64,000 nucleotides of DNA from a virus, in the IMG/VR virus record IMGVR_UViG_3300009071_000007. One strand, given 5' to 3'. The notes beneath the pieces were generated by a model, which was given only the letters and a program-made list of their open reading frames with translations, was not told the origin of the DNA and ran no database searches. The translations under genes were made by a program, and so were the position numbers. The stretch's first letter is position 1; each line of letters opens with the position of its first letter. Shown here one piece after another: positions 18,693-52,854 of this stretch.

Positions 18693-19825
18693 GATCTAAA
18701 CAGGACATAAGAAAGTTTTTGCTTGACAAGCCCGGGTACCTTAAAAAAGGTGCCTGGGTTTTAGCACGTAAACTGGAGTGCTCTGTAAAAGATTGTCAAG
18801 AAGTGTTGAAGGAGCTAAGGAACACAAATACATCAGAGAATAGACTTGATAGAGAAGACCTAGTTAAGACTTCTAGTCTGCAGAAATTCCTAAGTACCCA
18901 CGGAATTAGTGAAGCATCTGTATCAAGTGTAAAGTTTTGGCAAACAGCTACCGGAGATTTACGATACTCGATAGTTACTAGCGATGCTCCTAACATAGAG
19001 GACATCAAACAAGAGGTAGAAGATTTTGCAGCAGAGTATGCTCCGATATATCCAGATCAGGAATATCCAGAGCATGAAGACCCTATTGCATATGAGATAT
19101 CTCTCCCGGACATACACTACGGCAAGTTGGTAGACATGCCACTGCCGTACGATTTTCAAGAAAAAGAATACATTACAGTTGTAGAAAATCTTGTAGCTAA
19201 AGCAGCAGGATTGGAGATCGAAAGATTCATTCTCCCCATTGGGAATGACGGGTTAAACTCAGAGGGAATGAGAATGACTACAACTAAAGGTACCCCACAA
19301 CAGGACTATATGGACTGGAGAAAAAGCTTTAGGGGATACTGGAAGCTAATAGTTTACACCATTGACTATTTAAAGCAGATAGCACCCGTGGATGTTATAG
19401 TTGTCTCAGGCAACCACGATTACGAACGTATGTACTACGTAGGAGATGTTATTGCAGGATGGTTCCGCGATGACATCAATGTAAACGTGGACAACAGTGA
19501 TGACCCTAGAAAGTATTACCAATACGGAACAAACATGTTAATGTTTACTCACGGTGATAAAGAAAAGGCCCAAAACATTCCTTTGATAATGGCAACAGAA
19601 CAACCAGAAATGTTCGCAGCTACATCTCACAGAGAGGCGCACTGCGGACACTTTCATAAAGAGCAAGTCAATGAGTATCGAGGAATCAAAGTCCGTTTCG
19701 TTCCTTCTATTTGCCCTAACGATTCATGGCACAAGCAAATGGGATATGAATCCAAGCGAACAGGACAGGCTTATATATGGAGTAAAGAGAGGGGAATGGA
19801 GGGATATAATCAGTACAATGTTTGA
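18689..19825 (+). CDS. calcineurin-like metallophosphoesterase
   Basis: Ordered motifs PIGNDG, VVSGNHDYE, MFTHGD and CGHFHKE correspond to MPP motifs (GD, GNH[DE], H, GH). A roughly 130-aa N-terminal extension has unknown function. Confidence 0.7.
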   Translation: MRSKQDIRKFLLDKPGYLKKGAWVLARKLECSVKDCQEVLKELRNTNTSENRLDREDLVKTSSLQKFLSTHGISEASVSSVKFWQTATGDLRYSIVTSDAPNIEDIKQEVEDFAAEYAPIYPDQEYPEHEDPIAYEISLPDIHYGKLVDMPLPYDFQEKEYITVVENLVAKAAGLEIERFILPIGNDGLNSEGMRMTTTKGTPQQDYMDWRKSFRGYWKLIVYTIDYLKQIAPVDVIVVSGNHDYERMYYVGDVIAGWFRDDINVNVDNSDDPRKYYQYGTNMLMFTHGDKEKAQNIPLIMATEQPEMFAATSHREAHCGHFHKEQVNEYRGIKVRFVPSICPNDSWHKQMGYESKRTGQAYIWSKERGMEGYNQYNV

Positions 19826-32600: not shown

Positions 32601-34153
32601 TTGACCAACAAAAACTTGTTTGGACAGGGTACTACCAAGCTGTTGACTCTACAGATAGACCAGTCTCATCAGCGACAAGAGCAAAAGGACCTCAAGAGCC
32701 TACTTACAAAACAGAGACCGTATTTGGGGGAGACACTTACGTAGGGAGATACTCTTTCCGTACTACATCTCAAGATTGGGGAGCAGTTTTTTTTAAAGGA
32801 GGATCTGAAATAGACAATTCAAGTAATTGGGCGACATCCTCATGGCAAGCTGTTACTGGGGCTGGCGTTCAGTCTGTTCCTCCTTTCTATAGAGCAGTAG
32901 ATCCTTGGGCTACTGTATACAATTTCTTTTGTGAATCAGATGATTTATTAGGCTTTAGACATCAAGGAGATAATACTGAAGGGGTTTCGGTAGGAGAAAG
33001 CATGTTCTTTGATGGATCTATTGGGGCAGACGTATTATTTAATGGCCCAAACAACGATAATACTAAGTCGGAGAATCTGTTGTATATGAACAACTATTCT
33101 GCGGTGCAGGATGTAAAAGTTACAGCCCCACTCCCAAAGAAACTATTTAATCCAACATTCTACCCAACTAGAACTATTCGTTCTACTGTGGATGATGGAA
33201 GCATACAAGACAAGTATAGATTCTTCTTGGCCCTTGATTACAAAGATATTCCTAGAAACCGAGGAGCAATAACTAAAGCATTTACTTTAGGTTCTATCCT
33301 TTATCTGCATACTGAGCGCTCATTGTTTGTTACTAGAGGTAGGCAACAACTGGGATTGAGTGATAATACTCAAGCATTTGTTGGGAGCGGGGACATATTT
33401 GAGCAGAATCCTGATGAGCTAATCCCAACGACAGAGGGGTATGGGGGTAGTGATTGTCAGTTTGCATCTCTTACTACGCGCTTTGGACAGTTCTTTGTCA
33501 ATCGCAGAGACCGCAAAGTATACATGATGTCTGAGAACATAGAAGAGCTAAGTTCAGTTGGTATGGAGAAGTGGTTTTTAGACAACATTCCGTATCAGTT
33601 AGAATCATACATAGACTTGGGGGACGACATAAACTTTGACTCCCCTACAGGGAACTTCGGGTTCAACGCAACGTACGATCCAAAGTATAAAAGAATCATT
33701 CTATCCAAAAGAGAGCTAATCCCTATAGGGACATTTCTAGTTACACTTACAGGGGGATATACAATTAACGTGGATAGCGTTACAAATGATGCAATTACTA
33801 TCTCCGGTAACTTCCCAGCATTAGGAGGAAAAGCTACATTCTCATTCTCCGATACAAATAACTTCCGAGCAAGTGGATGGACAATATCCTATTACCCAGA
33901 AATAAAAGTATGGGGCAGCAGACATAGTTACTTGCCTAACCTCTTTGCAAACAACCAAAGAGAGTATTACGGATTAACTAACACAGGTCCTACTAATGTT
34001 TGGGAGCACTCTAACTTTGCATCCCCAGGCAATTTTTACAATACTCAGTACAATTTTGAGTTTGAGTTCATAGATAATACCGAGGTAGCAAGCCCTAAAA
34101 TTTTCACAGCGCTCCGGTATTGGCTAGAGGTTGTAGAGCCCACAGGAATATGA
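29687..34153 (+). CDS. large virion (tail/hub-type) structural protein, 1488 aa
   Basis: Uninterrupted 4.5-kb ORF in the tail region. It ends at TGA 34151-34153, and the same frame continues open downstream. See findings. Confidence 0.85.
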   Translation: MKKFIAGMTKDPERVDQPEGTYRDALNANLYYQKGAVVNEQGTTAFTNVGGFSITNIIGQCALKDGRIVLFFNYELNGAITSAISIVDPADKTNDIIYRNAALNFKPSNTIEATSKTDVNGETLVYFTDNYMQKTVEANTGIEYISDYNPPRVLNITRQQKSINFTRLYNNPDYTVEKLDLFLNAGFVPEFRDIKIEEGGGVVSGTYHLALAYVDEDLNRTNYLVTSNPVHVVTEHEDAIPTETITGDPQGSQSNKSISWIVDIPIPSNYTHVRPVIIQRFGGGINQESSEFAYELDIVQIPEGTNSEQFVNLEITYTGLEQASAASISEVVIDSVRYETAKSFVQLDNRLYISNLRARGDIGYQRFANNIKVIPTNTQVRKFDPKRFKASVLNSGYTNAFDTYKQLQKDDLNDSFFASNVRKGYKDVRMSHKYRGYRRSEVYAFYISFVLKDGSETYAYHIPGREEQLIDRINKYETASISDASNALQDLGLDVSEFEDLYPDSKIYQITDSQYLLDEGSTDMSYWENEDELYPDTEDFSVWSVNSAGDPVDLGLHLGNTNIRHHKMPPNKNDNFTFIGLEGAGNSTQVSPSLFNESSETTTGFELKESINILGVTFTDIAIPTFIESQVQGFKIYYAKRSQQEKTIIGQSVVVPSWYEDEIALGNRMSNAAHGPYLDAWFLRGLLPTYFSRYHQIPGDQIPNYNSSSGNKRVIGAFTFHDFNMLKNKHTLSGASHIDVQKVLNMRMWAGGPKKKAGNNAPYMLDGDWINPTIGNTQWYEWTDEGEQSVHGDPDDTTANPAGVANYWTSIWIAQRYYNPNYVNTSSTQWSTDQIESAPYFLNNYQTIFTLALNSKTYITGSTLLNNTDSSAFKDVDYLMHFAGESCMAFGLSSGLPVLIEERSFTSTNGYVEWWQDAKWKTATGSVNSTTVGLDLEEVNVTNSSGSKIYGGWPTMFLVNLCSYKTNVYKPFDQQKLVWTGYYQAVDSTDRPVSSATRAKGPQEPTYKTETVFGGDTYVGRYSFRTTSQDWGAVFFKGGSEIDNSSNWATSSWQAVTGAGVQSVPPFYRAVDPWATVYNFFCESDDLLGFRHQGDNTEGVSVGESMFFDGSIGADVLFNGPNNDNTKSENLLYMNNYSAVQDVKVTAPLPKKLFNPTFYPTRTIRSTVDDGSIQDKYRFFLALDYKDIPRNRGAITKAFTLGSILYLHTERSLFVTRGRQQLGLSDNTQAFVGSGDIFEQNPDELIPTTEGYGGSDCQFASLTTRFGQFFVNRRDRKVYMMSENIEELSSVGMEKWFLDNIPYQLESYIDLGDDINFDSPTGNFGFNATYDPKYKRIILSKRELIPIGTFLVTLTGGYTINVDSVTNDAITISGNFPALGGKATFSFSDTNNFRASGWTISYYPEIKVWGSRHSYLPNLFANNQREYYGLTNTGPTNVWEHSNFASPGNFYNTQYNFEFEFIDNTEVASPKIFTALRYWLEVVEPTGI
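34151..34153 (+). other. in-frame TGA (UGA-C context) separating ORF 29687 from the ATG-less ORF 34166 in the same frame
   Basis: 29687 and 34166 are both congruent to 2 mod 3. Only the sense codons caa tct tca gta lie between the TGA and the TTG the track uses as a start. Confidence 0.9.
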
Positions 34154-34165
34154 CAATCTTCAGTA

Positions 34166-34591
34166 TTGTATAAACATACATCCCCCGGATTCGATGCATT
34201 CTATGTTTACAACAGCACCCAAATCTCTGGAGATGGAACAGACCCTATAAACTACCTGTCAAATGCAAGGCTTGTAAATAACTTTTGGTATATTAACCAA
34301 TTTAGAGATAAAAGCACATATGAACTTAACACCTCAACTGTACTGGCTAATGGCGAGCTCAACGTCCAGGATGACTTTAATCAAGGGTCAACAACTACGC
34401 TGTTTAATACCTCCATGTTTACGGAAGAAGGCATCGTAAATGGAGACTATATAAATGCTAATAAATCTTGGTACAACCAAAAAAGATTTGTTGATCATTA
34501 CCTAGGAATACGTTTGATTAATAACAACTTAGATGGTAATTTAATATATTTGTATTCCGCAGGAACTAAGTTCCGACAATCCTTTAGATAA
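34166..34591 (+). CDS. either a read-through C-terminal extension of the 1488-aa protein or a separate 141-aa ORF with a TTG start
   Basis: It is in the same frame as ORF 29687. The first ATG is at codon 84 of 141, and no promoter or leader is present. The composition looks coding. Confidence 0.6.
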   Translation: MYKHTSPGFDAFYVYNSTQISGDGTDPINYLSNARLVNNFWYINQFRDKSTYELNTSTVLANGELNVQDDFNQGSTTTLFNTSMFTEEGIVNGDYINANKSWYNQKRFVDHYLGIRLINNNLDGNLIYLYSAGTKFRQSFR

Positions 34592-38154: not shown

Positions 38155-40946
38155 TGGCATATCGTAATCTGTATACACCCTTATCTCAATTTGTAGATCC
38201 ACAATCTACAGAAATAGCACAAGAGCTAAGAGCTAAATATCTTACATCTTTTCAAGCTCAGGATCAGGTAGCTCAAGCATTATCACAGCTGCCTGTTGCC
38301 TCATTTGAGAATGATCAAAAGATTTACAATGACTTGTACAATAGTACTCGTGCTGAGATAGATGGGCTTGCATCTAGAGGGGACTACGAAAATATGTTTG
38401 TACCTGTCTCTCGTCTGGCAAGAACATACAAGAATACGGCAACGCCTCTTGAAACTAACTACAATAGATATCAAGCTGATGTAGAAACAAAAAAAGAGAT
38501 GCTTGACAAGGGTGAGATTACAATGTCAGACTATGAAGGCTGGCTTAAAAAAAGCAGGCTAAAACAAGGTACTGATGATTACACCCCGTACCTCGGTATT
38601 GAACTAGACGGTAATGGGAGAGCTGTCCAATCAAGCTATTATGGAGGCACCCCAATTGCACAATACGTAGACATACAGAAGGAGATACTTACGCAGCTTA
38701 ATCAAATCCCGGAAGTAAAAAGAGGAGGATATAAGGTAAAAGAAATACAAGCACCAGATGCTGACGGTCTAGTATTTGCAATTACACACAAAGATCAGAT
38801 AGTAGAATACGTCCCACAAGAAGCGGTAGATGCAGTGACTGCCAACATTGTGCAACGCCCAGATGTACAAGCCTACATGACGCAGTCTGCAGACTTCAAC
38901 ACTCTAGACCTTGATGAAAATGAGCTAGATACTATTCTTAGAACTGCAGCACAATCATATATGTCTTCAGAAGACAAAGACGAGCAAAGATATGGTGACC
39001 AGCTTGCACACATAATCTCTACACAAACTGTTGGGGGTAAAAGACGTGCTGTAAAAGCTATGCTGTACAACGAGGATATCAACCGCTATATGACTACAGC
39101 TAGATTGACTAGACAGCCTAGTGCATACGGAGGAAGCTATTCTGTATCCTACGAGTCAGCTCTCACAAACAAACTTAACGAAACCAGAGGTGGTGGAGCC
39201 GGTGCTTATACTCCAGTACTCCCAGGCGATAATGTAGTAACTACTAATAGTCACTTAATTGGAGAAGGGCAAACTGCCCCAACAATAGCCGGGGTTGAAG
39301 GGCACATCGGAAACATAGGCAACAACAAGGAGGCAGTAGAGTCAGCTTTGATGGAACTCCACCCAGAACTTGCAGACATATACGGCATACCTACTGGGCC
39401 TATGTCTGCTACAGGTGGGGAAGGAATTGGAGCTGCGGTAGGCTCTCTTCCTGGTGCTAACTCTTTTGAATCTATACAAGACGATCTCTACAAAGAGAAC
39501 GGAGTAGAAATTATAACTACTAAACTGCTATATGCAAACCCAGAACTGGCTGAAAATAAAGCACAGATTGAAAACCATCTAAGACAGGCTAGAGCAGATT
39601 TGTTTAACTATGATGCTCAAAGAGATGCGGCAGAGAAGATAATTAAAAACGCATACGCTGAATTTAAAGACACCTTCGTCAATGAGGTTATTGCAGATAT
39701 TAGCAATGACATAGAAATGCCTGCTCAGCAGCTCCCTACATTTTACAACAATCCAGGATTGGGACAAATAGGAGCTACTTATAACCCAGAAACTAATGAG
39801 GTAGAGTTTAAACAGTCAGGTACATTTGACCCTGATGCATATAAGCTTGGGGTTGCAGCAAACATTATGACTGAACTTGAATACGTAGAGAAGTTCGATA
39901 AGACTCTGTCTCGATCTGGGTTAGGGGGAAGTCTTGATGTTGGGGCTGCCTTGTTTAGTCAAATGTTTGGGTTGGATGCTGAAGAAGCTATGGCGCTTGC
40001 ACAGACTGCTTCAACTGTTACAGTAACAGGAACAGAACGTATAGAAAATCTGTCGCAAGGGTCGCTGCTTGATGGGGTAGGATACAGAGGAACAGCTGGA
40101 CCTGTTAGATCTATGACTGCAGGAGAAGACCGACTCACTGGAATGACAGCAGTTGGCTCTATGGGTAAGATTAACATACGTGAGAAGCTTGACAAAGCAA
40201 CTGAACAAGCTGAGGAAAGAATAGGTAAGCTTGGGCGGGTTACATATACTACAAGCCAGTCTGAGGCAGCACTTGGAGACTCAAGCGGTAAACTGTCTAA
40301 AGAGATTAATGATACGGTTAAGGGTAGATTCTTGAGCACCCTTGCAAATGTTCCTGTAATTCTTACAGAGTCAACACAAACTAGACTAAACGAAAACAAT
40401 CCAGAGATAGCTAATCAAGCAAGGGCTGGAGTTCCTGGATCAATTGTAACAATAGCAGATTTGTATAAAGAAGGAGACGAAGATTATGCTAAGGCAAAAA
40501 TAGCAAGAGCAGACTTTACCTCGTATCTTGACCCAGTAACAGGAAGCATGAAGGCCGGAATGTCTATAGAGACAAGTACCGGTGATCAAATTCTTGTTCC
40601 ATACGACGAATTAATTATGGGTTACGATCCAACAATGCCTAGCAAAATTACAAATACGTACAACAGTCCGGGCGGAATGATAGCTAGTAAAGCAATTGCA
40701 ACAATGCTCCAATACCCAACAGCATTTGGTGAAGAAAATGGGTATGTGCACAGAGATGTGATTGGGGGAAGAAGCGTAGAAATTGAATTCCTTGCACCAC
40801 AAATGCCATTAGAAGAAGATGGCCTTGCTGTTACAGCAGGACCAAATAGAGTTATTGTTAGAGCCAGTGGTGGAGCAGGAGAAGATGTGGAACAAGAACT
40901 AGCTATCGACGACTTCATAATATTCTATAACGCAGCAATACAATGA
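38154..40946 (+). CDS. giant virion cargo-protein candidate (930 aa)
   Basis: Uninterrupted ORF with a TAATG overlap upstream and an ATGA overlap downstream. No motif recognised. Confidence 0.85.
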   Translation: MAYRNLYTPLSQFVDPQSTEIAQELRAKYLTSFQAQDQVAQALSQLPVASFENDQKIYNDLYNSTRAEIDGLASRGDYENMFVPVSRLARTYKNTATPLETNYNRYQADVETKKEMLDKGEITMSDYEGWLKKSRLKQGTDDYTPYLGIELDGNGRAVQSSYYGGTPIAQYVDIQKEILTQLNQIPEVKRGGYKVKEIQAPDADGLVFAITHKDQIVEYVPQEAVDAVTANIVQRPDVQAYMTQSADFNTLDLDENELDTILRTAAQSYMSSEDKDEQRYGDQLAHIISTQTVGGKRRAVKAMLYNEDINRYMTTARLTRQPSAYGGSYSVSYESALTNKLNETRGGGAGAYTPVLPGDNVVTTNSHLIGEGQTAPTIAGVEGHIGNIGNNKEAVESALMELHPELADIYGIPTGPMSATGGEGIGAAVGSLPGANSFESIQDDLYKENGVEIITTKLLYANPELAENKAQIENHLRQARADLFNYDAQRDAAEKIIKNAYAEFKDTFVNEVIADISNDIEMPAQQLPTFYNNPGLGQIGATYNPETNEVEFKQSGTFDPDAYKLGVAANIMTELEYVEKFDKTLSRSGLGGSLDVGAALFSQMFGLDAEEAMALAQTASTVTVTGTERIENLSQGSLLDGVGYRGTAGPVRSMTAGEDRLTGMTAVGSMGKINIREKLDKATEQAEERIGKLGRVTYTTSQSEAALGDSSGKLSKEINDTVKGRFLSTLANVPVILTESTQTRLNENNPEIANQARAGVPGSIVTIADLYKEGDEDYAKAKIARADFTSYLDPVTGSMKAGMSIETSTGDQILVPYDELIMGYDPTMPSKITNTYNSPGGMIASKAIATMLQYPTAFGEENGYVHRDVIGGRSVEIEFLAPQMPLEEDGLAVTAGPNRVIVRASGGAGEDVEQELAIDDFIIFYNAAIQ

Positions 40947-43900
40947 GTAATAAGGGTACTATAAATCCCATTACAGGTCTTCCGCAACAAAACACTTTAA
41001 ACCCTATTACAGGGCTCCCGTTTACTACTGCAGAAGAGCTGGGTGCATTTCAAGCAAAAGTTAACCGCCAACGACCTCAAGTATCAGTAGCTCCTGGATT
41101 TGCTGCAACAACTGGGGACTTCTCTTCATATGCAGACAGAGGAGTAACACTTTCTGGGGGACCTAGCTACAAGGATTACTCTACTATAAGAGCCCTCAAT
41201 CAAAGCGCAGGAGAAAAATTGTTAATCGGGGCCAAAAAAGGAACCGTTACTGGAGCTAGCGCTTTTGTAAACGGATTGCTTGGTATGGCGGGCGCTCTTG
41301 ACTTTGCCGCTGGAAGTAATTTGAATCCTAAAAGCAGAGGATCTCTAGTTGGGACAGCTCAGGATTGGACAAATCTTGTTAATACTGAGGAGTGGCGGGA
41401 GAACTCTCGTAAAAACAATCCACACTATTACACAAAGACAGAGCTGGATAACATAGGAAACTTTAACCCATTCTCTGAAAACAACTCATTTACATGGAAC
41501 TTCCTTACTGACAAGATATTTGATGGTATAGGATTCTTAGTTGGGACAGCTGCATCAATATATGTTACAGCGGGTACAGGAGTTATTGGACGTGTTGGTC
41601 AGCTTGGGAATATAAGCAAGGGACTTGCAACGTGGAGAACTGCTAAAACTATAAAGAGTGGGCAGTCTTTGTCTAAGGCTCTTGGTACATACAGAACTAC
41701 TAAAAACGTAGCAAGTAAGATATACAACGGTGCTGCTAAGACCGAAGCAGCTTTCTTATCTGCAGTAGGGGAAGCATCTATTGAAGGAAAGGAAACAGGT
41801 AAACAAGTGTATGAAAAGCTATATGCAGAAGCTCTGAGAAAGAAGACTGCAATGGGTTTACCTGCACAGCTTTCTGCACAAGAAGTGCAACAGCTTAAGT
41901 TACAAGCATTAGAAGCAGAGGGTGCTGCTTTTTATTCAAACGTGGGAGTACTGAGCTTGAGTAACTCTATAATGTTTAGGGGTCTGTTCAAACAGTTTGG
42001 AAAAGCAGCAGGAACATCTAGATGGCTAAGAGCTGCAACAGCAGCAGAGAGAGCTGCAAAACCATCACTGCGTGTTGTAGACAAACTCAGTGGACTTCCA
42101 GGTTATGGTATTCGACAAACTGCACAAGCAGCAAGATTTTCAGCCCCCTTCTTAAAAACAATGGCGGCTGAAGGATCAGAAGAAGCTGCACAGTATGCAA
42201 TTACTGAGGGGATGATTGAGTACGAGATGGCAAAGATGCATGACTCCGGATTGGGGGATATAGTAGAAAGTCTTATTGACACAAATAAGCTCCGAATTGC
42301 AGCAGAGTCATCTCCTGAGGTTGCAAGTAAAATGCTTGAGACATTTAGTAACCCAGAAGCGCGAGAACAATTTGTCATTGGATCTATTGTTGGTATTCTG
42401 GGTGGGGGAATACAAGGCTACAAGGAATCAAAGGCAAGCAGAAAACAAAGAGATGAGCAGGCAACTTTGCTTAACAACGAAGGTATGTTCCGAGCAGCAA
42501 GAGGAGCAGAGTCTGTAAACAAGCAGTCCTTTTTCTTGCAGAGAATGAATGAAGCAGAGCAAGCAGGAGACAGGGAGCAATTTGAATACTATCAAAGAAG
42601 ACTGCAGGCAGAACAAATACTGCAGCATTATAATAAAGGAAGCTTAGACTTGTTCAGAGAGATGCTGGAAGACTCAAAAAGTCTCCCGGAGAATGAGTTC
42701 AAAGAGCTTTATGGAATCAGCCCAGAGACAGTTATAGACCAGAATAAACTGGTAGATGATATTGTATCTAGATCCAAAGAGATAGAGAAGTCTGCAGAAA
42801 TGATAGACGAACTCTACACAAGCTCCCCAACTGTTGGAGCAGGTAAGCTGTTCATGTCAAAAGAAGAGAAGGAGCTAGAGAAAAATAATCTTCAAGATGA
42901 AGCTATTTATAAAAACTATTTAAAGCTAGAGCTAGGGTCGCTAAAGTTTATTGATGGGGCAATCTCAGAGAAAGTAGATAAAATTGAGGAGATGTTCCCA
43001 GGCCTCTTGACAGATGTGCTTGTTACACAGACATACAAGAAAGGAAAAGAGGCAGACTATGAAGAGGGTACACGTACTAAGTCTGTTAATATGCGTGATC
43101 GTATACGCAACTATGTAAGAAACAGATTTGGGGAGGTGGCTCTAGAAGAAGGCAAATTCAGTTTAGATGTACAGCAAAATCTAGAAAAGAATCTAAACAC
43201 CATTCTAGCGAATAATCAAGAACACACAGAGTTCGAGACTGTCAGAAAAGAATTGGTAGAGCTTAGGGAGCTTATTAGTCAAAGGGGTAATGCAGTCACT
43301 GCATACAATAACCTCAACAGAAGCCCGGAGCTGCGAGACCTTGCAATATCTGGAACAAAGATTGCATTGGAGCGGGAAGCACAAACAAAGAGAGATGCAC
43401 TTGTTGATCAAATTATTGCAGATACTGTAACACCTGAACAACTAAAAGCAAAAGCGGATAGAATTCTGCAACAAGGGAGCATCTCAGAAGAAGCTAGAAA
43501 AAGAGCCAACGACGAAATAGCTGCAAGAACAAAAACCAGATCAGATGCTCAACAGAAATGGGACACTATGTCCAGACCCGCAGTTGAAAATCTTGAAGGA
43601 CTAAGCCCACTGCTAGACTCGTACAGAGAACAATATCTTAAGGACAGATCTCAAGAGGCCCCAATAAGAGATACTACTGTTGAGCAGAAGAGAAAAGCTG
43701 ATGAGGCAGCAGAAATAATAAAGAGACGAAAACAAGAGGGAGCACGACTTGCGGCTGAAAACCGCAAAACAGGAGAGCAATCTGCACCTGGACAACAGCC
43801 GACGGAGAAGGAACAAAAAGGATTGCAAAGGAGGATTGACAGGAGTAAAAAGGATTTTGCTGCCGCTACAAGTCTTGAAGAAAAAGCTAAAGCCCTTCTT

Positions 43901-46900
43901 AGGTACCTTAATAGCGTCTCTAACTCCAAGGGTATTGCAAGTGAAGAGGATGCGGCTTGGTACGAAGCGAGTAAAGCTGAGCTAGAAGCTGAGGGATTTG
44001 TATTTGATGATATAGGTGATGAACTAAATAGCGATGAGCGAGATGAGCGAATTGGAGCGCCTTTTGACATCCGCACCGAAGAAACTAGCGATGCTGTTCC
44101 TAAAGGGAAAATAATTATAAAGGCTGTAGTCAAACCAAGGCGGGTGGTAGACGGGAAGACAGTCAGCCGACCTACCTACGACGTAATTAGAGGAACAGGA
44201 ACAACGGCTGCAAGGGATGCCTTAGTTGCTGAAGTATATGCTTTGGAGGATGAAATAACTACAGATAATTTTAATGAAATATCTCCTAAGCTAAAAGCCG
44301 CAAGAAAGGCTTTGAAGGATTACGATGATGCTAATTTCCCTTCATCTAAATCTGTTGCCGCCCCTAAGAAAGCAGCCCCTGAGAAAGTCGCAGATCAGGG
44401 CACCGCATCAACAAAGAAAGATGCATTGTTTACAACACACAGTGAAAGCCTGAACAATGAGGTAGTTAAAGATGCACAAGGAAGAGTAGTTGTTTCTTCT
44501 GACGGAGTACCCATGGATAGTGGACTGGACTCAGAAAGAACAGTAAATGGGGAGCCTATTATTACTGATCGTAGCTTGCTTGATAGTGATAAAGTAGTAG
44601 CAGGAACGACGCTTGTACTGGAGGTTATAGAGGATGATTGGTGGCTTGGTAACAAAGGTAAGACTCAATATAGAAATGCCGCTGCACATATACCTATATA
44701 TGTAAAGCTCCCATCCGGAGAAGTACTCGGTGTGCTTACTGCTAATGACAGTGCTATGCGTCGTGCTGCCTACCAAGAATATCTGAAGGGCGCACAGGGA
44801 CAACAAGTTACTGTAGCAGTTGCTAAGAAGTATCTTAATAACAGAAACAATGCTGTTGTAGAACTGCAAGACGGTACTACAGGCACGTTCCTATCCAGAG
44901 TAGATGAGGTGTTTGGGAACACTCCTCTTGGTGTTGTTACCTACGCAAAGAACCTGAGCAAAAAAGGTTTGACCGTAGCTAATACACAAGGTCTCACGCA
45001 AGAAGACCTTGATGCTATTGCAGAGCTGTCTAACGAGGTGACTAGTGATAAAGTAAGATACGGTCAGGTAGTTGCACTGCACAAAGACTCAAACGGAAAG
45101 TGGAAGTATAGCTTACTACAGACGGCAAGACTTACTGAAGCAGAGCAAGAAGAAGCATTTAATCTGTTACTTGACTCTTCTCCGGAATCGTACCAGAAAC
45201 TGGTCGATGAGGTTGGTTTGAATACACTAAGCCCAGCAGAAGTTGGGGAAGTATCTGTTACATATCTGCAAGTAGAAAAAGACTACATGCGGAATGCGGA
45301 CAAGAGAGTGATAAGATTCGCAGTTCCTACACGCTCAGTAAAATCTGAGATGGCAAGAGCTGACTTAGAGAATGGGATGTTTGTAGTTGCATTAGACAAC
45401 CGAACACTTACAAATCTTGCAGACCCAAGTACAGCAGAAGCTACGGCTAAAGCAATACTCAACGGTAAGAAAGGAACAACAGAAGCTGGAATACTTGGTA
45501 ACCTTATACAGAAACTTGTTGAGAATGAGGATGGCTTTATAAATACAAAAGGAGCAGGTTTCCAGATTATAAAAGAGGACATGAGCAAAGAAGAAGCTCT
45601 TGCTTTTATAATGTCGTTGCCCGATGCTGTAAAAAGAACCTTAAAGAATAAGAGAAAGCAGGTAGATATTAACAGACTTAATGCTGACCCATCATACTAT
45701 AATACTCTTGTAGAAGAGACAAGAGAAGACCCGCTCCCACTACAAACGGTCTTTGGGCACCGTGGTGTTATTATGACTGACGTTGTTCTGCATAATGGCT
45801 CTATGTACAATGGTATTGGTCTTGAGTTTGACTTGTCCCAGCTTAAGATTGGGAACAAAAAACCAAAGGCAAACAACATAAAAGTATCTCGTCCTATATC
45901 AACAGCAGAAACTAATGATGCACAAGCATTGTTTGATGAAGCAGCAAAAGCTCGAGAACAAGAAGTAGGAGAACAAGAATACGATCCCACTCAAGTTACT
46001 GATGATGATATAGCAGAAGCAGAAAAAGCAACCCGGAAGAGGCTTCTCGCTATACTTGCTGAAAGACGCAAGAAAAAAGGCCAACAGGAAACGGGAACAG
46101 GAACGGAGACAGAAACGAAAACGGATCCAGAGGAAGAGAAGCTGAAGGGCATGGACTTAGAGGATGACGCATTTAGACTGTCTGCTAATAAGGGTAAGCG
46201 CTTGAATAAAGCTCAAGCTATTGCTTGGTTGAAGCAGCGAAACATCCCAGTAGAGTTTTATGAGATTGCAAAGCAGGTAGGTAGTAAAGTTGCACACGGC
46301 TATATGAAGAATGCTGCTGTGTATCTGTGGAACAACGCAGAAGTTGGGACTGAATACCACGAAGCATTCCACTATGTATTCCGCACATCTCTAAGCGAGA
46401 AGCAAAGAGAGGGATTGTACAAAGAAGCTAGAAAGCGGTTTAATCTCCCCAATGCTACAGAGCTTGAGCTTGAAGAGGCAATGGCAGAGGAGTTCCGTAA
46501 TTACGTATTTACTGCACAAGAGACCGGGAAGACTCTTCCTGGGAAGATCCGCAAGTTCTTCAACGATTTGTGGAACTTCATTAAGGCCCTGTTTGTAAAT
46601 CCTGTAGGCGTAGAGCAGTTCTATTCTTTGATCGAATCAAACAAGGTTCCAAATAAATATGAAAGAAGCGCTGAGAAGTTTGCAACCAAGGGCGAGGTAT
46701 ACAGATTGGTGAGTGACTTGGGGAATGACTATGAGATGCAACAACAAGTCCTTGACGTTATCTCTATGCAGTTCGTTGATACATATAACGAAAGCAATCA
46801 GATGTTGCAGGGAATGTCTCAACTAGAGGGCACAGGAAAAAACAACAAGGTTCTTGCAACTGCACTCCTTGGAACAACAGAACAAGACAAGGGAATTATT

Positions 46901-49900
46901 GCAGATTGGTTCTTGCAGCACTCTTTCTCAACAGAAACTGATGGGTACATGAGTGATGAGGCAATGGAGGCAATTAAAAATGCAAAGAGCTCAGAAGAAA
47001 TAAAGAACGCTGTAAAGAAATACAAGCTTCAACGAAAACCCCCTCTGCAGGCATTTATAGAAGGTGAACTTCCTACTACTGTATTTAATAAAGAGGAGAA
47101 GACCCAGCGAAACACAGCGATTATTTTCTACAATGTATGGAAAAACTGGTTTGACGTTACAGATGAGCTAGGTAACATTGAACAATACGGGTGGAGAGAT
47201 GCAGCAGCTGCAGATCTTCTTAAGTATGGGTTCACTATTCAGACTAGAGTTGCTACACGTACTGCACTGGAGCAAGAGGAAGAAGGGTCTCCTGAACAGG
47301 AGGAGGTGAACTTCGACAAGATCTATGACATTTCTCACTTTGAACAAGACCCACTCAAAGTGGCATCTAAAGAAGTGAGAAACCTGCTGTCTAGAATCGT
47401 GGACACAACGCCTAACGTATTCGGGATACCTACTTATATAGACGTTGAGGCTACCCTTAGAAAAACAATTGCAGTTACTGCGGGCGCTAAAGGGTATTCA
47501 GAGATACTGGGTAGAATACAAGAGGCTGCTCGTATAGAAGAGATAGAAGCACAAAAGACAGATAGAAAAAGTCTGATACTTGGCCCACTTAAGGACTATC
47601 TTAATGGGACTCCTACAGCACAAGAGGTTGCGGCACTTACCCGCTTCTTAACTAAGACATACTCAGAGCTTAGAATTGTACAAGAAAATCAGATCGAGAC
47701 TACTGACGGTGGAGTAGAGATGTCTGTACAGACTATCAACTCTGACAGAAAGAGTGCAGTTATTAACTGGCAAGACACTTGGAAGAACGACGGACTTCAA
47801 ACGCTTTCAGTCCCAAGACCCGGAGCAGTATTTACAGAGACTGAAGATGGGGGTATTGCCTTTAACAACAACATAACTGAGGGTCAAAATAGAATAGACC
47901 TGCTTAAAGAGGCATTCCTCAACTACGATAGAGAGAACACAGTTGAAGGTAAGGCTACACAGCTAGGTAAAATAATGTGGAACCTTTCTTTGGGTATGGG
48001 CAGTACTGAGCAAGAGGCTACAGATCGCCTCATGTCTTACGTGCTAAAGAATACTACTCTAGACAACAATGAAATATCCAAGATATTTAAGAAGGTAATT
48101 TACTTGGCCAACCAAGCAGTAGACTTTAAGGTAGAGGGCGGAAGAGTAAAAGACGTGATGCTTAAGAAGGGCAAGGTTAGAAACTTCTTTGTATCAGAGG
48201 GATCTACAGTAAAGGAGCTTGCTAATATTGCTGCAGAATACAGTGTCCCAGTTGCAATAGCATATGTAAACGGGAAGGGAAAGACTATCTATCCATACAA
48301 CCTCCCCACACCATTCACTGATTTGATAGAAGATCTCAAACAAAATGCAGCTTCAAATAAGTATGCATTCTTGCAAGGAGATGAGTCTTTCACAGCAATG
48401 AACACTGAGCACAAAGCAATGCTCATGACCTTGATTGCAAATCCAGAATTTGAAATATCCAGCTGGGCACTTGATACTATCAACAATGAGGCATCAGATG
48501 ACGCTAACATAGAGTACAAGAAAATGTCCGAACGAGACTCTCTGATACTCAAACTCAATATGTTTGTAAACCAAGGGTCAGCTATAAAGTATGGATGGAT
48601 ACCTGTTTCAACTCAGGAGACTAGAGGCAGATTGGACTTTGTTAAGTTCCCTAAGATAGAAGAGAAGAACTTCGCAGCTGTAGAAGCAGCAGGCTTGCAA
48701 CGAGAAAGCTTTAGTGGAAGACTCAAGAGTGTTGTCATACGTGACTTGGTTCGACTTAGCAATAACCCACGTGTAGCTGAAAACTACAACAACGGCTTTC
48801 ACTTAACGGGCATAGTCAATACTAAACTAGGTAGTGGCCTTTTGATGTCTGAAACTGTAAAGGACTATCTACAAAACCCAAAGGGTAAAGAATATCAGGA
48901 CTTCAATAAGGAGCTTGACAGACAGGTAAAAGAATACGTAAACACTGTATTCAAACGAAATAGAGAGAACCTCCGCAACGAGCTCTTGCGATACAACATC
49001 ATACGATTGGTTGAAGGCAAGCCAGAGTTCTTGGAGAAGTCCAAGCTTGACTCGTCAGTTCAGAAATACGGGGGAGTAAATAGATTCCTCAATAACTATA
49101 TGATGACAGACATGCTAGCTCGCATTGAGATGGCAGAGATGTTACGTGGTGGTGTTGTACAATTTGAGAACTTAACCAAGTTCTACAAAAGAATGGGTCT
49201 TATACAAACTCCCGGAGATAAGCTTATGCAGAAGGGAGAGTTTGAAGCTGATCCAGATTACGGAATGGCCCCAACAATTGTGGAGGCCTCTATAGAGAAA
49301 ATGCAAAACCAAGAGCCCTTTCATAACGAGGCAGCCGACAATCTTCGAGACCTTTCACTAGCTCCTTTCTATGAAAAGACTATGAAGATGTCTAAAGAGG
49401 AGGCACTTAAAAAAGCAGAAAGCATAGCAAAACAGTACAGAAACGATTTTGGTGACCATACAGATGCCCAAGCATTTGCTTCAGATCTCTTCTACAAAAT
49501 GTATAAGCAGGGTAAAGGACAGTGGACATCAGAAGATGACGTGTGGTTTGATGAATATCTGAACAAAAAAGGAGAATGGAAAGGGGATAAATACATAGAG
49601 CCTATAAAGCCATTTGTAAACAATCAGGTTATGGAGAATGGGGCGTCTATATCTGATATGCAGAAGAACTCACTCTTGGTTGTTACGCGACCACTAGCAG
49701 AAATGAACACAGTTCTGGCGGCTATGTATCTTAGAATGAACAAAGCGGGGGACAACATACACATAATAAATACGGAGTCTGCAAAGAAGGGTGCGAAGGG
49801 TCAGGAGTTTGCTGTAAATCAAGAACTTGGAGCGACCATGTTTGAAGGACTTGAAGGAACAGAGATGAGCACAGATGGGTTGTACATACCACAAACTATA

Positions 49901-50110
49901 AGTGACAAAAGAGCTGAGACAGCTAAGATGAATCGTCAGATTCGTAAGGTGCTCCCAACTATGGTTAAGGCAGATGGAGAGTATGATGTAAAAGGAGCAA
50001 AGTCCCCAATGTCAGGAAAAGAGGTTAGTGATAGATATCAAACCTTGCATGAAGAAATCCTTGACGCGCAAGCAAAAAGCTTTTCAAAGAGCTTGGGTGG
50101 GACGAGTTGA
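40943..50110 (+). CDS. 3055-aa polyvalent virion protein with an HEAFH zincin-like motif; probable N-terminal part (or partner subunit) of a virion RNA polymerase
   Basis: 9.2-kb uninterrupted ORF. The N-terminus has a tandem NPITGLP motif and hydrophobic Gly-rich segments. Long coiled coils are present. HEAFH lies at 46358-46372, with a downstream acidic helix EEAMAEEF. The ORF ends at TGA 50108-50110, overlapping the next ORF in the -1 frame. Confidence 0.85.
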   Translation: MSNKGTINPITGLPQQNTLNPITGLPFTTAEELGAFQAKVNRQRPQVSVAPGFAATTGDFSSYADRGVTLSGGPSYKDYSTIRALNQSAGEKLLIGAKKGTVTGASAFVNGLLGMAGALDFAAGSNLNPKSRGSLVGTAQDWTNLVNTEEWRENSRKNNPHYYTKTELDNIGNFNPFSENNSFTWNFLTDKIFDGIGFLVGTAASIYVTAGTGVIGRVGQLGNISKGLATWRTAKTIKSGQSLSKALGTYRTTKNVASKIYNGAAKTEAAFLSAVGEASIEGKETGKQVYEKLYAEALRKKTAMGLPAQLSAQEVQQLKLQALEAEGAAFYSNVGVLSLSNSIMFRGLFKQFGKAAGTSRWLRAATAAERAAKPSLRVVDKLSGLPGYGIRQTAQAARFSAPFLKTMAAEGSEEAAQYAITEGMIEYEMAKMHDSGLGDIVESLIDTNKLRIAAESSPEVASKMLETFSNPEAREQFVIGSIVGILGGGIQGYKESKASRKQRDEQATLLNNEGMFRAARGAESVNKQSFFLQRMNEAEQAGDREQFEYYQRRLQAEQILQHYNKGSLDLFREMLEDSKSLPENEFKELYGISPETVIDQNKLVDDIVSRSKEIEKSAEMIDELYTSSPTVGAGKLFMSKEEKELEKNNLQDEAIYKNYLKLELGSLKFIDGAISEKVDKIEEMFPGLLTDVLVTQTYKKGKEADYEEGTRTKSVNMRDRIRNYVRNRFGEVALEEGKFSLDVQQNLEKNLNTILANNQEHTEFETVRKELVELRELISQRGNAVTAYNNLNRSPELRDLAISGTKIALEREAQTKRDALVDQIIADTVTPEQLKAKADRILQQGSISEEARKRANDEIAARTKTRSDAQQKWDTMSRPAVENLEGLSPLLDSYREQYLKDRSQEAPIRDTTVEQKRKADEAAEIIKRRKQEGARLAAENRKTGEQSAPGQQPTEKEQKGLQRRIDRSKKDFAAATSLEEKAKALLRYLNSVSNSKGIASEEDAAWYEASKAELEAEGFVFDDIGDELNSDERDERIGAPFDIRTEETSDAVPKGKIIIKAVVKPRRVVDGKTVSRPTYDVIRGTGTTAARDALVAEVYALEDEITTDNFNEISPKLKAARKALKDYDDANFPSSKSVAAPKKAAPEKVADQGTASTKKDALFTTHSESLNNEVVKDAQGRVVVSSDGVPMDSGLDSERTVNGEPIITDRSLLDSDKVVAGTTLVLEVIEDDWWLGNKGKTQYRNAAAHIPIYVKLPSGEVLGVLTANDSAMRRAAYQEYLKGAQGQQVTVAVAKKYLNNRNNAVVELQDGTTGTFLSRVDEVFGNTPLGVVTYAKNLSKKGLTVANTQGLTQEDLDAIAELSNEVTSDKVRYGQVVALHKDSNGKWKYSLLQTARLTEAEQEEAFNLLLDSSPESYQKLVDEVGLNTLSPAEVGEVSVTYLQVEKDYMRNADKRVIRFAVPTRSVKSEMARADLENGMFVVALDNRTLTNLADPSTAEATAKAILNGKKGTTEAGILGNLIQKLVENEDGFINTKGAGFQIIKEDMSKEEALAFIMSLPDAVKRTLKNKRKQVDINRLNADPSYYNTLVEETREDPLPLQTVFGHRGVIMTDVVLHNGSMYNGIGLEFDLSQLKIGNKKPKANNIKVSRPISTAETNDAQALFDEAAKAREQEVGEQEYDPTQVTDDDIAEAEKATRKRLLAILAERRKKKGQQETGTGTETETKTDPEEEKLKGMDLEDDAFRLSANKGKRLNKAQAIAWLKQRNIPVEFYEIAKQVGSKVAHGYMKNAAVYLWNNAEVGTEYHEAFHYVFRTSLSEKQREGLYKEARKRFNLPNATELELEEAMAEEFRNYVFTAQETGKTLPGKIRKFFNDLWNFIKALFVNPVGVEQFYSLIESNKVPNKYERSAEKFATKGEVYRLVSDLGNDYEMQQQVLDVISMQFVDTYNESNQMLQGMSQLEGTGKNNKVLATALLGTTEQDKGIIADWFLQHSFSTETDGYMSDEAMEAIKNAKSSEEIKNAVKKYKLQRKPPLQAFIEGELPTTVFNKEEKTQRNTAIIFYNVWKNWFDVTDELGNIEQYGWRDAAAADLLKYGFTIQTRVATRTALEQEEEGSPEQEEVNFDKIYDISHFEQDPLKVASKEVRNLLSRIVDTTPNVFGIPTYIDVEATLRKTIAVTAGAKGYSEILGRIQEAARIEEIEAQKTDRKSLILGPLKDYLNGTPTAQEVAALTRFLTKTYSELRIVQENQIETTDGGVEMSVQTINSDRKSAVINWQDTWKNDGLQTLSVPRPGAVFTETEDGGIAFNNNITEGQNRIDLLKEAFLNYDRENTVEGKATQLGKIMWNLSLGMGSTEQEATDRLMSYVLKNTTLDNNEISKIFKKVIYLANQAVDFKVEGGRVKDVMLKKGKVRNFFVSEGSTVKELANIAAEYSVPVAIAYVNGKGKTIYPYNLPTPFTDLIEDLKQNAASNKYAFLQGDESFTAMNTEHKAMLMTLIANPEFEISSWALDTINNEASDDANIEYKKMSERDSLILKLNMFVNQGSAIKYGWIPVSTQETRGRLDFVKFPKIEEKNFAAVEAAGLQRESFSGRLKSVVIRDLVRLSNNPRVAENYNNGFHLTGIVNTKLGSGLLMSETVKDYLQNPKGKEYQDFNKELDRQVKEYVNTVFKRNRENLRNELLRYNIIRLVEGKPEFLEKSKLDSSVQKYGGVNRFLNNYMMTDMLARIEMAEMLRGGVVQFENLTKFYKRMGLIQTPGDKLMQKGEFEADPDYGMAPTIVEASIEKMQNQEPFHNEAADNLRDLSLAPFYEKTMKMSKEEALKKAESIAKQYRNDFGDHTDAQAFASDLFYKMYKQGKGQWTSEDDVWFDEYLNKKGEWKGDKYIEPIKPFVNNQVMENGASISDMQKNSLLVVTRPLAEMNTVLAAMYLRMNKAGDNIHIINTESAKKGAKGQEFAVNQELGATMFEGLEGTEMSTDGLYIPQTISDKRAETAKMNRQIRKVLPTMVKADGEYDVKGAKSPMSGKEVSDRYQTLHEEILDAQAKSFSKSLGGTS

Positions 50111-52854
50111 AAAAGAATCCAGGTAACAAAGAAGCACGACTTAAATTCCTGCAGAGAGTGAAAAGCGTTATTATGGATAACGCAATGAAGAATAACAAGC
50201 TTGACTCTAACTTAGATAAACAACTTAGGATCGTAGAGGACATGGTAAATAACACCGTGGACTTTAATGTCCCAACATATATGCCTGTTTATCAGCGGCA
50301 GTTACAGAACCAAATCTTCTCTCTGTTTAGATCCAATGTGTACCAGGTTAAGCTACCAGGACGTGACCTTGTACAAGCAAACTCTGGAGGTAAGTGGAAG
50401 ATTGGGGATGAGATAAGAGAGCTTAGACATATACATATAGATGAAAAAGGGAATACAGTGGCGGCAGAGATAATGATATCTGAAGACCTGGCAGAAATGC
50501 ATGGTATAGAGGTTGGGGATCGCATTATAATGTACCGTATCCCAAACCAGGACTACTCTTCAGCAGTCCCATCTCAAGTTGCTGGTATCCTTCCTCGAGG
50601 ATACTCAAAGACAGTTATGGTGGCAGGTGGTATTACAATTCAAACAGGATCTGACTTCGATATTGATAAACTATTTAACCTGTTTGAGAACAAGGATCCC
50701 AAGAATAGACTGGATAGGTTAAAGAATGAGCTGTTTAATATCTCCTATTCTATATTAATGAATAAGGAAACAGCACCCTACCTGTTTGCCCCACTTAATC
50801 AGGATACACTAAACGATCTAGCCGACAATCCTGAAATTGCAAAAGAAGAAGTCAGAGATTTTGATGACCCACTTGTAGAAATCAAGATGGAGTCTAACTA
50901 TAAAAGTGCTGCAACACTTGTGGGTGGGTATGCTAATGCTATTGCAGGTATGAGCATTGCTAATGTTGCATCTCAGTTCGAGAATGAAGAATACGTACAG
51001 AACGGTATAGCAGTAAATGCATCTAAGAAATTCATACTAAATGACACAGCACTTGGTCTGATATCTACTAGGTCAGAGATGACAAACGAAAGAAATATTG
51101 CTGGAATCGTAGAGAGACTTTCTGCAGCGCTAGATGCTGGTAGTAAATTAATCCACAGTACGCTTAACGATAATGATATTACTCTCAACGCTACAGTGTA
51201 TCTTAAGAGTATAGGATTTGGGGACCGAGATGTAGTGGCATTAATGACGACCCCCCTTGTTAGGGAGTTTGTTGAAAGTAAAAGAGACAACAGAAACAAG
51301 AGTAACCAGAGAGTATTCCAAGATTTAGGAATTAATAGAAAGACCTACAGCAAAATTGCAAGCTTTGATAGCAGCATACTGCCCCCAGCTTTAAATACTG
51401 AGGAACTTGAAAGAGTTTCTAAAGAGGGGAATAGAAAAGATCCGGTTGCAAAAGAAGCATTGTACGCATTTGCGCATGCACTTGTAGCAGGTAACAGCTT
51501 GTCAGACTTCTACAGAGTCATTGCTGCAGATAACCTGGATGGGATGGGGGACCTTGCTGAGATTGAGGCATACCTGGATGTGCTAGATAACTACAAGAGA
51601 AGCGGTAACAGAAACATCGTTGGTTACTCAGAGGTGGAGAAGATACTTAAGGGGGATGCATATAGAATTAGTAGAGCCTTCTTCAACATCATAGATGAGT
51701 CGATGCAGATATCATCGGAGCTGTTTATGAGCGGGACGAAGGGGGTTAGAGAGTTTAAACAGTTGCTGAAGGATGTTGCTGGAAAGCAAACTATGACTGC
51801 TGCAGAGCACAGATTTGTAGACAGAGCATTGTTCTACCACATCTTTACTAAGGAGGGTTCTCCGATAGGATCATTGATGCAGAAGTCTGTAGTAAAGTCG
51901 ATGCTTCTTGATCCTAAAAACAACTTGTACAAACAAGTGAAAGACCTGATCGAGGAGATTCCAGCATTGAGAAGTAACTCTATGATTGCGTCTATTAAAG
52001 AGGGACCTAAATACAATGATCCTACTACAAGAGTGTTTGGAATAAGCATAGAGAACACGGAGAAAATGTCACTCAGAGCAAGAGAAACCCAACGTCAGTC
52101 GTTTGGAGATCTATTGTACAGACCGGAGAAATACACTAGTGACCCACAAGAACAGAAGAAGATCCAGAATATGGGTAAGAGACTGGTACTCAACTCAATC
52201 GTAACAACCGGACTTGCACCTTCTTATGGTACATACTACGACGCCATCCCAATAGACTTCTTTATGGAGATAGCTGACGAGAGTGGGAAGACCTTGATGC
52301 AGTACTTGCGAGAAGAATTCCAGAATGTCAAGAATGACGAGAGATACTTTGACGATTTCATGTTCAGCTTTATGCAGAACTACGGTGCCGCTACTGTAGC
52401 ATCTGCACCACTTGTTGGACGAATGCCACGTTCGTATGTGCAACGCGGTGAAGGACTGTACGGATTGCCTGCATCAGTAGAACTAGATGGTCGTCCGGCG
52501 CGATATGTAACAAGAGCTAATTACAGTAAGGGTGTAGATAAGATGTCAGTGTATGAGTATAACAACACAGATGAGATGTATCACCTAATACAGAGCACGA
52601 GTATAACTAATAAGATTATCGAGCTCAACCTCAGAGACAGAAATGGGGATATTGTAACTAGCAGTTTCTTTGCTGAAAGCCAAGGAGAAAGAAAAGTAAG
52701 GATGGCAGGTAAAGGTAAAGGAAAAGATAAAGTTGTAGATTTACATTCTAGAGCTGGAATTACAAAGACTATGTCTGATCCTATGACTATGAACGAGGAG
52801 ACAAGAAGAATCAGAACTACAGACAGCTCTTCAGATATATCACATGTTTGCTAA
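50107..52854 (+). CDS. beta-prime-like double-psi beta-barrel RNA polymerase catalytic module (915 aa as an ORF; likely fused to or partnered with ORF 40943)
   Basis: SLFRSNVYQVKLPGRDLV .. VGDRIIMYRIPNQ .. VMVAGGITIQTGSDFDIDKLF parallels RpoC [20 protein letters not shown] .. [11 protein letters not shown] .. [18 protein letters not shown]. DFDID lies at 50653-50667. The track start is a TTG. The first ATG is at 50173, and the frame is open back to 50065. Confidence 0.7.
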   Translation: MKKNPGNKEARLKFLQRVKSVIMDNAMKNNKLDSNLDKQLRIVEDMVNNTVDFNVPTYMPVYQRQLQNQIFSLFRSNVYQVKLPGRDLVQANSGGKWKIGDEIRELRHIHIDEKGNTVAAEIMISEDLAEMHGIEVGDRIIMYRIPNQDYSSAVPSQVAGILPRGYSKTVMVAGGITIQTGSDFDIDKLFNLFENKDPKNRLDRLKNELFNISYSILMNKETAPYLFAPLNQDTLNDLADNPEIAKEEVRDFDDPLVEIKMESNYKSAATLVGGYANAIAGMSIANVASQFENEEYVQNGIAVNASKKFILNDTALGLISTRSEMTNERNIAGIVERLSAALDAGSKLIHSTLNDNDITLNATVYLKSIGFGDRDVVALMTTPLVREFVESKRDNRNKSNQRVFQDLGINRKTYSKIASFDSSILPPALNTEELERVSKEGNRKDPVAKEALYAFAHALVAGNSLSDFYRVIAADNLDGMGDLAEIEAYLDVLDNYKRSGNRNIVGYSEVEKILKGDAYRISRAFFNIIDESMQISSELFMSGTKGVREFKQLLKDVAGKQTMTAAEHRFVDRALFYHIFTKEGSPIGSLMQKSVVKSMLLDPKNNLYKQVKDLIEEIPALRSNSMIASIKEGPKYNDPTTRVFGISIENTEKMSLRARETQRQSFGDLLYRPEKYTSDPQEQKKIQNMGKRLVLNSIVTTGLAPSYGTYYDAIPIDFFMEIADESGKTLMQYLREEFQNVKNDERYFDDFMFSFMQNYGAATVASAPLVGRMPRSYVQRGEGLYGLPASVELDGRPARYVTRANYSKGVDKMSVYEYNNTDEMYHLIQSTSITNKIIELNLRDRNGDIVTSSFFAESQGERKVRMAGKGKGKDKVVDLHSRAGITKTMSDPMTMNEETRRIRTTDSSSDISHVC

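Follow-up and report, generated by a model that had tools for sequence, protein, structure and literature searches.

The closest described relative of the gene analysed here is gp66 of Cellulophaga phage phi14:2, an RNA polymerase of 2180 amino acids (aa) that is known to be packaged in the virion and to transcribe early genes. gp66 carries two double-psi beta-barrel domains in one chain, joined by a Connector at residues 1095-1238 (bioRxiv 10.1101/2020.03.07.982082). In Zeta-group crAss-like phages, giant RNA polymerase genes are seemingly broken by frameshifts in the assemblies (Yutin et al. 2021, PMC7886860). We analysed a stretch of 64,000 nucleotides (nt) from the IMG/VR virus record IMGVR_UViG_3300009071_000007 (one strand, 5' to 3'; hereafter the window), in which a gene of this kind appears to be divided between two overlapping open reading frames (ORFs), ORF1 and ORF2, by a -1 change of frame. 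Comparison with related genomes shows that ORF1 and ORF2 together are one gene, that it encodes a two-barrel RNA polymerase of the virion type, 3970 residues long, in a marine crAss-like phage, and that the break between them is a one-base lesion in a run of A's. Homology with gp66 further suggests that the window protein may be packaged in the virion and may transcribe early genes.

A profile of 24 homologues, made from the junction-spanning segment, matched the gp66 structure (PDB 6VR4) over residues 851-1671 with E = 4.5e-155. The match places the following two features in the window.

approx. 49019..51270, plus strand: homology to the two-barrel core of gp66 (residues 851-1671), from the profile match to 6VR4
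50653..50667, plus strand: DFDID catalytic motif of the second barrel domain, aligned to gp66 1361-DFDID-1365

Three marks of the gp66 family were found: the DFDxD motif, homology to the core including the bridge-helix and trigger-loop region, and a crAss context, in that near-identical contigs carry PF23898 Crass_capsid, PF24228 CrAss_Ring_1 and PF25702 CrAss_Ring_2. The C-terminal ~350 aa of ORF1 align to gp66 residues 851 to about 1174, and the junction between the ORFs aligns to about gp66 1172-1180. Because this position is within the Connector, ORF1 ends with the first barrel, and the second barrel, with the DFDID motif, lies in ORF2. The window protein resembles gp66 in the identical DFDID and in the barrel - Connector - barrel order. 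Both barrels lie in one polypeptide in every relative but not in the window as written, owing to the missing base. Unlike gp66, the window protein has 3970 aa, with ~1800 extra N-terminal residues, identity between the two is low, and an interruption inside the Connector is seen in the window record only. The genes annotated as 'putative RNA polymerase' in gut crAss-like phages (crAss001, cr85_1, cr128_1 and others) are also continuous across the junction among the tblastn matches listed (40 of 72 records), at 22-24% identity; they are much more distant and come from another habitat and host group, and none is interrupted at the junction. Pfam and PHROGs searches of the two ORFs assigned a family to neither, and megablast and blastn searches of GenBank phages, with the junction region as query, gave zero matches.

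The two frames had been described earlier by a model that saw only the letters and their ORFs (the sequence-only reading). It had put the end of ORF1 at the TGA at 50108-50110, had found the -1 frame open from 50065 with a TTG at 50107 and an ATG at 50173 as its first possible starts, and had located five A's (A5) at 50074-50078 within GCA AAA AGC. All of these positions were confirmed on the sequence. The parts of the gene and of its junction are as follows.

40943..50110, plus strand: ORF1 of the ORF list, 3055 aa, with the C-terminus ...LDAQAKSFSKSLGGTS and the stop TGA at 50108-50110
40943..50077, plus strand: 5' part of the RNA polymerase gene, codons 1-3045, in the ORF1 frame
50074..50078, plus strand: A5 run, the site of the 1-nt loss; six bases in near-identical and related genomes, in Lys-Lys codons
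50077..52854, plus strand: 3' part of the RNA polymerase gene, codons 3046-3970 and the stop, in the -1 frame
50078..50110, plus strand: out-of-frame tail SFSKSLGGTS and TGA, a product of the missing base and foreign to the native protein
50107..50109, plus strand: TTG, codon 3056 (Leu) and not a start codon, from the codon comparison across relatives
50173..50175, plus strand: first ATG of the -1 frame, internal Met 3078, with 32 conserved codons of the same frame upstream

In the -1 frame a TGA at 50062-50064 is followed by an open stretch from 50065 to 52854, and no junction of the two ORFs is possible except through a -1 change somewhere from 50065 to about 50080. When the sequence is read from 40943 to 50077 and resumed at 50077, it gives ..EEILDAQAKKLFKELGWDELKKNPGNK.. 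at the junction and a product of 3970 aa; the trans-frame peptide of this fusion is AQAKKLFKELGWDELKK, and the unfused ORF1 ends in ...AQAKSFSKSLGGTS. The A5 run as such is ordinary. Runs of at least five A's occur at 2.5 per kb in the sequence and are present in 9% of random 43-nt windows, and the ORF1 frame holds 43 in-phase A_AAA sites. The homology across the frame change, on the other hand, is beyond chance: the protein similarity of the relatives keeps to the ORF1 frame as far as the A run and to the -1 frame from there on, and no homologue has anything like the tail SFSKSLGGTS, all of them aligning in the other frame.

Near-identical assemblies were retrieved by exact-product look-ups with neighbouring window proteins, and four of them cover the junction.

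L157: ENA ERZ27295518, k141_668408, 79,720 bp, 99.93% identity to the window over 11.9 kb
L160: ENA NODE_457, 52,719 bp, 99.91-99.93% identity over 22.8 kb
L161: JGI Ga0115567_10000154, 65,223 bp, 99.91-99.93% identity over 22.8 kb
L162: ENA NODE_173, 79,405 bp, 99.91-99.93% identity over 22.8 kb

Their names are MEGAHIT-style in L157 (k141_) and SPAdes-style in L160 and L162 (NODE_), and L161 is from JGI, making four independent short-read assemblies. All four have six A's (A6) at the site, in GCA AAA AAG CTT, and a single gene was called at the locus in each (3970 aa in L157, L161 and L162; 3943 aa in L160). The A6 in place of A5 at 50074 is the only indel between the window and each of the four. 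In L157 the frame is open over all 1329 codons covered, and a comparison of 1328 aa with the fused window protein showed 2 differing residues. Both the junction peptide and the 3970-aa length of the fused window product are exactly those of the near-identical genomes; the sequence-only reading had given this junction peptide and a length of about 3970 aa. Its proposals that the two ORFs belong together, joined by a -1 change at this place only, and that the true sequence may have six A's also agree with what the relatives encode, since all of those examined have six bases and one ORF, the four assemblies at 99.9% identity included. These results demonstrate that the two ORFs are parts of one gene, that the break lies at the A run, and that it is private to the window.

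Six further assemblies (L158, L159 and L163-L166) widen the comparison to window positions 1-34109, where the only gap is one base at 18763; this gap lies seven bases inside the cut end of L159, and L158 is gapless there. Over positions 1-60738, the A5/A6 difference is thus the sole internal indel against near-identical assemblies. Exact-product look-ups with ORF1 (3055 aa) and with ORF2 taken from the ATG at 50173 (893 aa) returned zero records, and the broken products are thus not known from anywhere but the window. One more assembly, L155, is the same as the window over 49700-50380 except for two inserted bases, of which one extends the run to A6 and one is an additional C, four bases farther on; assemblies of a single local haplotype thus differ in their indel states here.

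Many independent ENA and JGI assemblies (L157-L166) contain the same phage at 99.9% identity, with a genome of about 79-80 kb, and 44 blocks of the collection list its 463-aa ring protein. It is therefore an abundant environmental crAss-like phage that has been sampled well. No close relative of it was found in the GenBank phage collection.

More distant genomes were consistent with the near-identical ones, and the gene crosses the junction in one frame at every distance examined, from 96% nucleotide identity down to 21% protein identity. A tblastn search of GenBank crAss-like phages with the junction-spanning segment matched 72 records, and among the matches listed (40 of the 72) each was one continuous segment across the junction position. 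In IMG/VR, JGI and ENA, 57 of 86 loci gave a single tblastn segment across the junction and none was broken there; the remaining loci were without detectable upstream similarity or ended short of the junction. The peptide QAKKLF was present in all seven ENA proteins that cover the site. A pattern scan found GCAAAAAAGC, with A6, in the JGI contigs L084, L087, L091 and L092 (90-96% identity), and GCAAAGAAGC, with AAAGAA in the codons AAG AAG, in the IMG/VR contig L003. At 90-96% nucleotide identity, A6 or AAAGAA is carried by L001, L003, L084, L087, L091 and L092. Those with clean assemblies, namely L091 (3537 aa covered), L003 (2641 aa covered) and L084, have one long ORF that runs through the site. 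When indels between the window and the JGI contigs and L003 were clustered, the only coding indel that was not a multiple of three was the one at 50074. Farther away, L004 and L006 have GGC AAA AAG, and L007, L002 and other distant homologues are without Lys-Lys. In answer to the question whether homologues are single ORFs, which the sequence-only reading had raised, every related genome examined has six bases and one ORF at the site.

The same comparison bears on where ORF2 could begin. An ELG motif (in forms such as KKLFKELGW, KKLFDELGW, DLKNELGF and RLYGELGY) is encoded at 50086-50094, upstream of both the TTG at 50107 and the ATG at 50173, and is shared by many homologues, including some as distant as about 22% identity. 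The codon at 50107 is TTG in the A6-bearing L001, L154 and L157 and CTG in L003, L084, L087, L091 and L092, so the TTG is simply Leu 3056. The window has 41.9% G+C and no Shine-Dalgarno sequences, and nearly all of its genes start with ATG behind A-rich leaders; the sequence before the TTG at 50107 is G-rich, unlike those leaders.

A word-indexed protein search yielded only 3 clusters, and the useful relatives came from the pattern scans and exact-product look-ups. The conclusion on A6 draws on the clean short-read assemblies; the ENA assemblies with 'contig_' names (L001, L154 and L155) were discounted because of dozens of 1-nt insertions in the polymerase gene. Each of these three 'contig_N' assemblies has 30-40 mostly single-base insertions, which cut the gene into many pieces. 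The insertions are confined to the most divergent part of the gene (44.4-52.8 kb), with none in the 4-8 kb flanks, and several are common to the 'contig_N' assemblies, such as those at window 50414, 50670, 50770, 52024 and 52168. They are likely consensus artefacts in a strain-variable region. A further frame change was seen at 5830-5856 of L002 (ENA contig_7001, 33% identity), ~100 codons downstream of the junction-equivalent position. It is at another place than the window break and is possibly an assembly indel as well.

The window has a second lesion of its own. In a 1634-aa virion structural gene (29687..34591), whose 5' part matches phrog_15100, codon 1489 is TGA at 34151-34153. The codon is GGA (Gly) in L160, L161 and L162, and these three assemblies, at 99.9% identity, each have one 1634-aa product. 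As a consequence of the TGA, the window shows an apparent 1488-aa ORF followed by a 441-nt gap. Altogether the window has 17 private single-nucleotide polymorphisms (SNPs), of which 8 lie within 29728-30286. Among the other nine, 7 are coding, with 2 synonymous, 4 non-synonymous and 1 nonsense change, and this mix, together with the frameshift, looks unselected; from noise free of selection, one nonsense change and one frameshift in about 10 scattered private differences would be expected. The cluster at 29728-30286, with 8 private SNPs in 560 nt, five of them synonymous, looks like a small recombined patch and is unlike errors.

The junction is best explained as follows. The native gene would be translated conventionally into a single chain, as is its homologue phi14:2 gp66. 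The window has one A fewer than the A6 run (GCA AAA AG for GCA AAA AAG), which leads the ORF1 frame into a nonsense tail of 11 codons and leaves the DFDID-bearing part in the -1 frame. Because every related genome reads through, the break is a sequence lesion private to the window, not a designed expression signal. We infer that the missing base is an error rather than a real deletion, that is, unselected noise in the record, most likely from consensus or base calling, and we give this reading a probability of roughly 0.6. If the window came from the 'contig_N' series, a residual consensus error at the junction would be plausible. As with a typical homopolymer-length consensus indel, the change is a single base inside an A6 run and private to one record, near-identical genomes have the other length and an intact ORF, and reversion restores a long conserved ORF. 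The record is otherwise very clean, which weighs against an error. Of the homopolymer runs over 12.7-60.7 kb (A/T of at least 6 or G/C of at least 5, up to 9 nt), all 93 match the short-read assemblies in length, and 60 kb of sequence contain not one further indel. The errors that usually accompany a consensus indel of this type are thus missing. Nothing points to a homopolymer problem across the platform, and a true deletion of 1 nt in the sampled DNA has to be taken seriously as an alternative.

The deletion, if real, might simply be defective: a rare or recent loss-of-function allele, uncompensated, and either complemented or captured from few reads. A systematic miscall is made less likely by the lack of any other homopolymer discrepancy in 60 kb, replication slippage is naturally frequent at A6 runs, and the nonsense codon at 34151 could equally reflect a degraded genome or noise. 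A doubly defective genome, however, should not dominate a consensus. The four assemblies at 99.9% identity that cover the A run and the three that cover codon 34151 are all intact there, and the exact products of ORF1 and of ORF2 from its ATG are on record nowhere else. We rank a defective allele second, as possible but less likely than an error. A real allele that still yields a working enzyme, whether from split chains or from rescue by slippage, seems improbable even when both routes are taken jointly. With split chains, the deletion would be tolerated, and polypeptides of 3055 aa and about 915 or 893 aa would associate in the manner of beta and beta-prime, the second being made by termination-reinitiation, either at the TTGA overlap or from Met 50173. 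The cut falls at about gp66 1172-1180, in the Connector that links the two barrels, cellular RNA polymerases carry the barrels on separate chains (bioRxiv 10.1101/2020.03.07.982082), and stop-start overlaps of 1-4 nt are common in the gene block (38154, 40943-40946). A break in the Connector makes such a split structurally conceivable but unsupported, for no relative at any distance is split at the junction position, the TTG is an ancestral Leu codon shared with A6 genomes, no new start signal or A-rich leader has arisen, the second chain would lack 10-32 conserved residues, the ELG motif among them, and the allele is private to the window. We therefore hold two tolerated chains to be quite improbable. 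The suggestion in the sequence-only reading of two separate subunits as a designed feature fails for the same reasons: there is no split relative, and the TTG at 50107 is inherited. In the rescue by slippage, low-level slippage would restore small amounts of the 3970-aa protein, either by a -1 move of the P-site tRNA-Lys from AAA 50075-50077 to 50074-50076 or by the transcribing polymerase inserting one A. The A_AAA quadruplet permits perfect re-pairing, both routes recreate exactly the native Lys-Lys sequence, and a virion-borne protein may, we assume, be needed in few copies only. Yet there is no tandem in-phase heptamer, no stimulatory structure and no conservation, and with 43 other in-phase A_AAA sites in ORF1 the junction site is unmarked; an A5 run is also short for transcriptional slippage. 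Rescue of this kind appears, if anything, a little less credible than two tolerated chains. An A5 allele that is both real and viable, in which a single-chain RNA polymerase was very recently converted to a beta/beta-prime-like heterodimer by reinitiation at TTGA or Met 50173, has in our view only a slim chance, lower again.

Most improbable of all is a programmed, selected -1 ribosomal frameshift as the lineage's normal route to the polymerase, which the sequence-only reading had proposed. Only the geometry speaks for it, an overlap of 43 nt that holds an A run, along with the disrupted RNA polymerase ORFs with frameshifts reported in Zeta-group crAss-like phages (PMC7886860). Unlike the window, with a single lesion that is absent at 99.9% identity, those disruptions are numerous and recur within clades. 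In genomes 99.9% identical to the window a single frame encodes the protein. AAG AAG, which is not slippery, is found in one lineage, and Lys-Lys is lacking altogether in homologues farther away; neither the frame break nor the slippery site is conserved in relatives, even at 99.9% identity. There is no in-phase X_XXY_YYZ heptamer at the junction, where the zero-frame codons are GCA AAA AGC, a shortcoming that the sequence-only reading had itself pointed out. Re-pairing is possible for the P-site tRNA-Lys only, the next codon, AGC, being unable to re-pair. No downstream stimulatory structure was found, as the segments 50079-50160 and 50060-50125, when folded, were no more stable than shuffles (z = +0.72 and -0.08). 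Lacking conservation, an in-phase heptamer and folding beyond that of shuffled sequence, programmed frameshifting did not hold up.

The A_AAA_AAG sites of dnaX and IS911 offer a comparison. The GCA AAA AAG of the unbroken relatives does contain A_AAA_AAG in phase, and the window keeps the A_AAA quadruplet. Unlike at those sites, the relatives make the polymerase unshifted, a -1 slip would lead to truncation after about 17 codons, the motif is unconserved and without a stimulator, and the window's own site is no heptamer. Because a slip in the relatives would only truncate and the motif is not conserved, we attach no function to A_AAA_AAG, and a dnaX-like truncation product in the A6 relatives was rejected on the ground that the heptamer is not conserved. 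Two other candidates were rejected as well. Stop-codon reassignment does not suit the junction, where a frame change and not read-through is needed, and the window has no tRNA gene; an intron or intein does not suit an overlap of 43 nt at which the relatives differ by one base.

Several other properties of the polymerase gene were observed. An HEAFH motif (HExxH, zincin-like) lies at about window 46358-46372, at ORF1 residue 1806, in the long N-terminal extension; it is kept in P0003, P0004 and P0006, and no Pfam domain was found there. The gene is also a hot spot of strain variation, with 28-103 mismatches per kb against L155 over 44.4-52.8 kb and 2-21 in the flanks. A stretch of ~590 nt (window 43797-44385) could not be aligned to L001 and L091, which have a shorter in-frame segment instead. 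In L084, L087, L091 and L008 (~91% identity), an in-frame open insertion of 615 nt (205 aa, with a VYHGS motif) was found in the second-barrel region, between window-equivalent 50406 and 50413. It is absent from the window, L001, L003 and L157. The product of the insertion gave a weak match to PF18760 ART-PolyVal (ADP-ribosyltransferase), with E = 1.3e-4 and a score of 23.2 bits, short of the cut-off at 31.2 bits.

For annotation, these results suggest that the record should carry one 3970-aa RNA polymerase gene, either flagged as frameshifted or corrected to A6, and that neither two genes nor a programmed frameshift is warranted; the same correction applies to the TGA at 34151. The case illustrates that, in a giant gene, a lesion of one base can look like recoding. 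Were the allele real and viable, a reading to which the present evidence gives little weight, it would mean that a single-chain, two-barrel polymerase tolerates a cut exactly where cellular polymerases divide.

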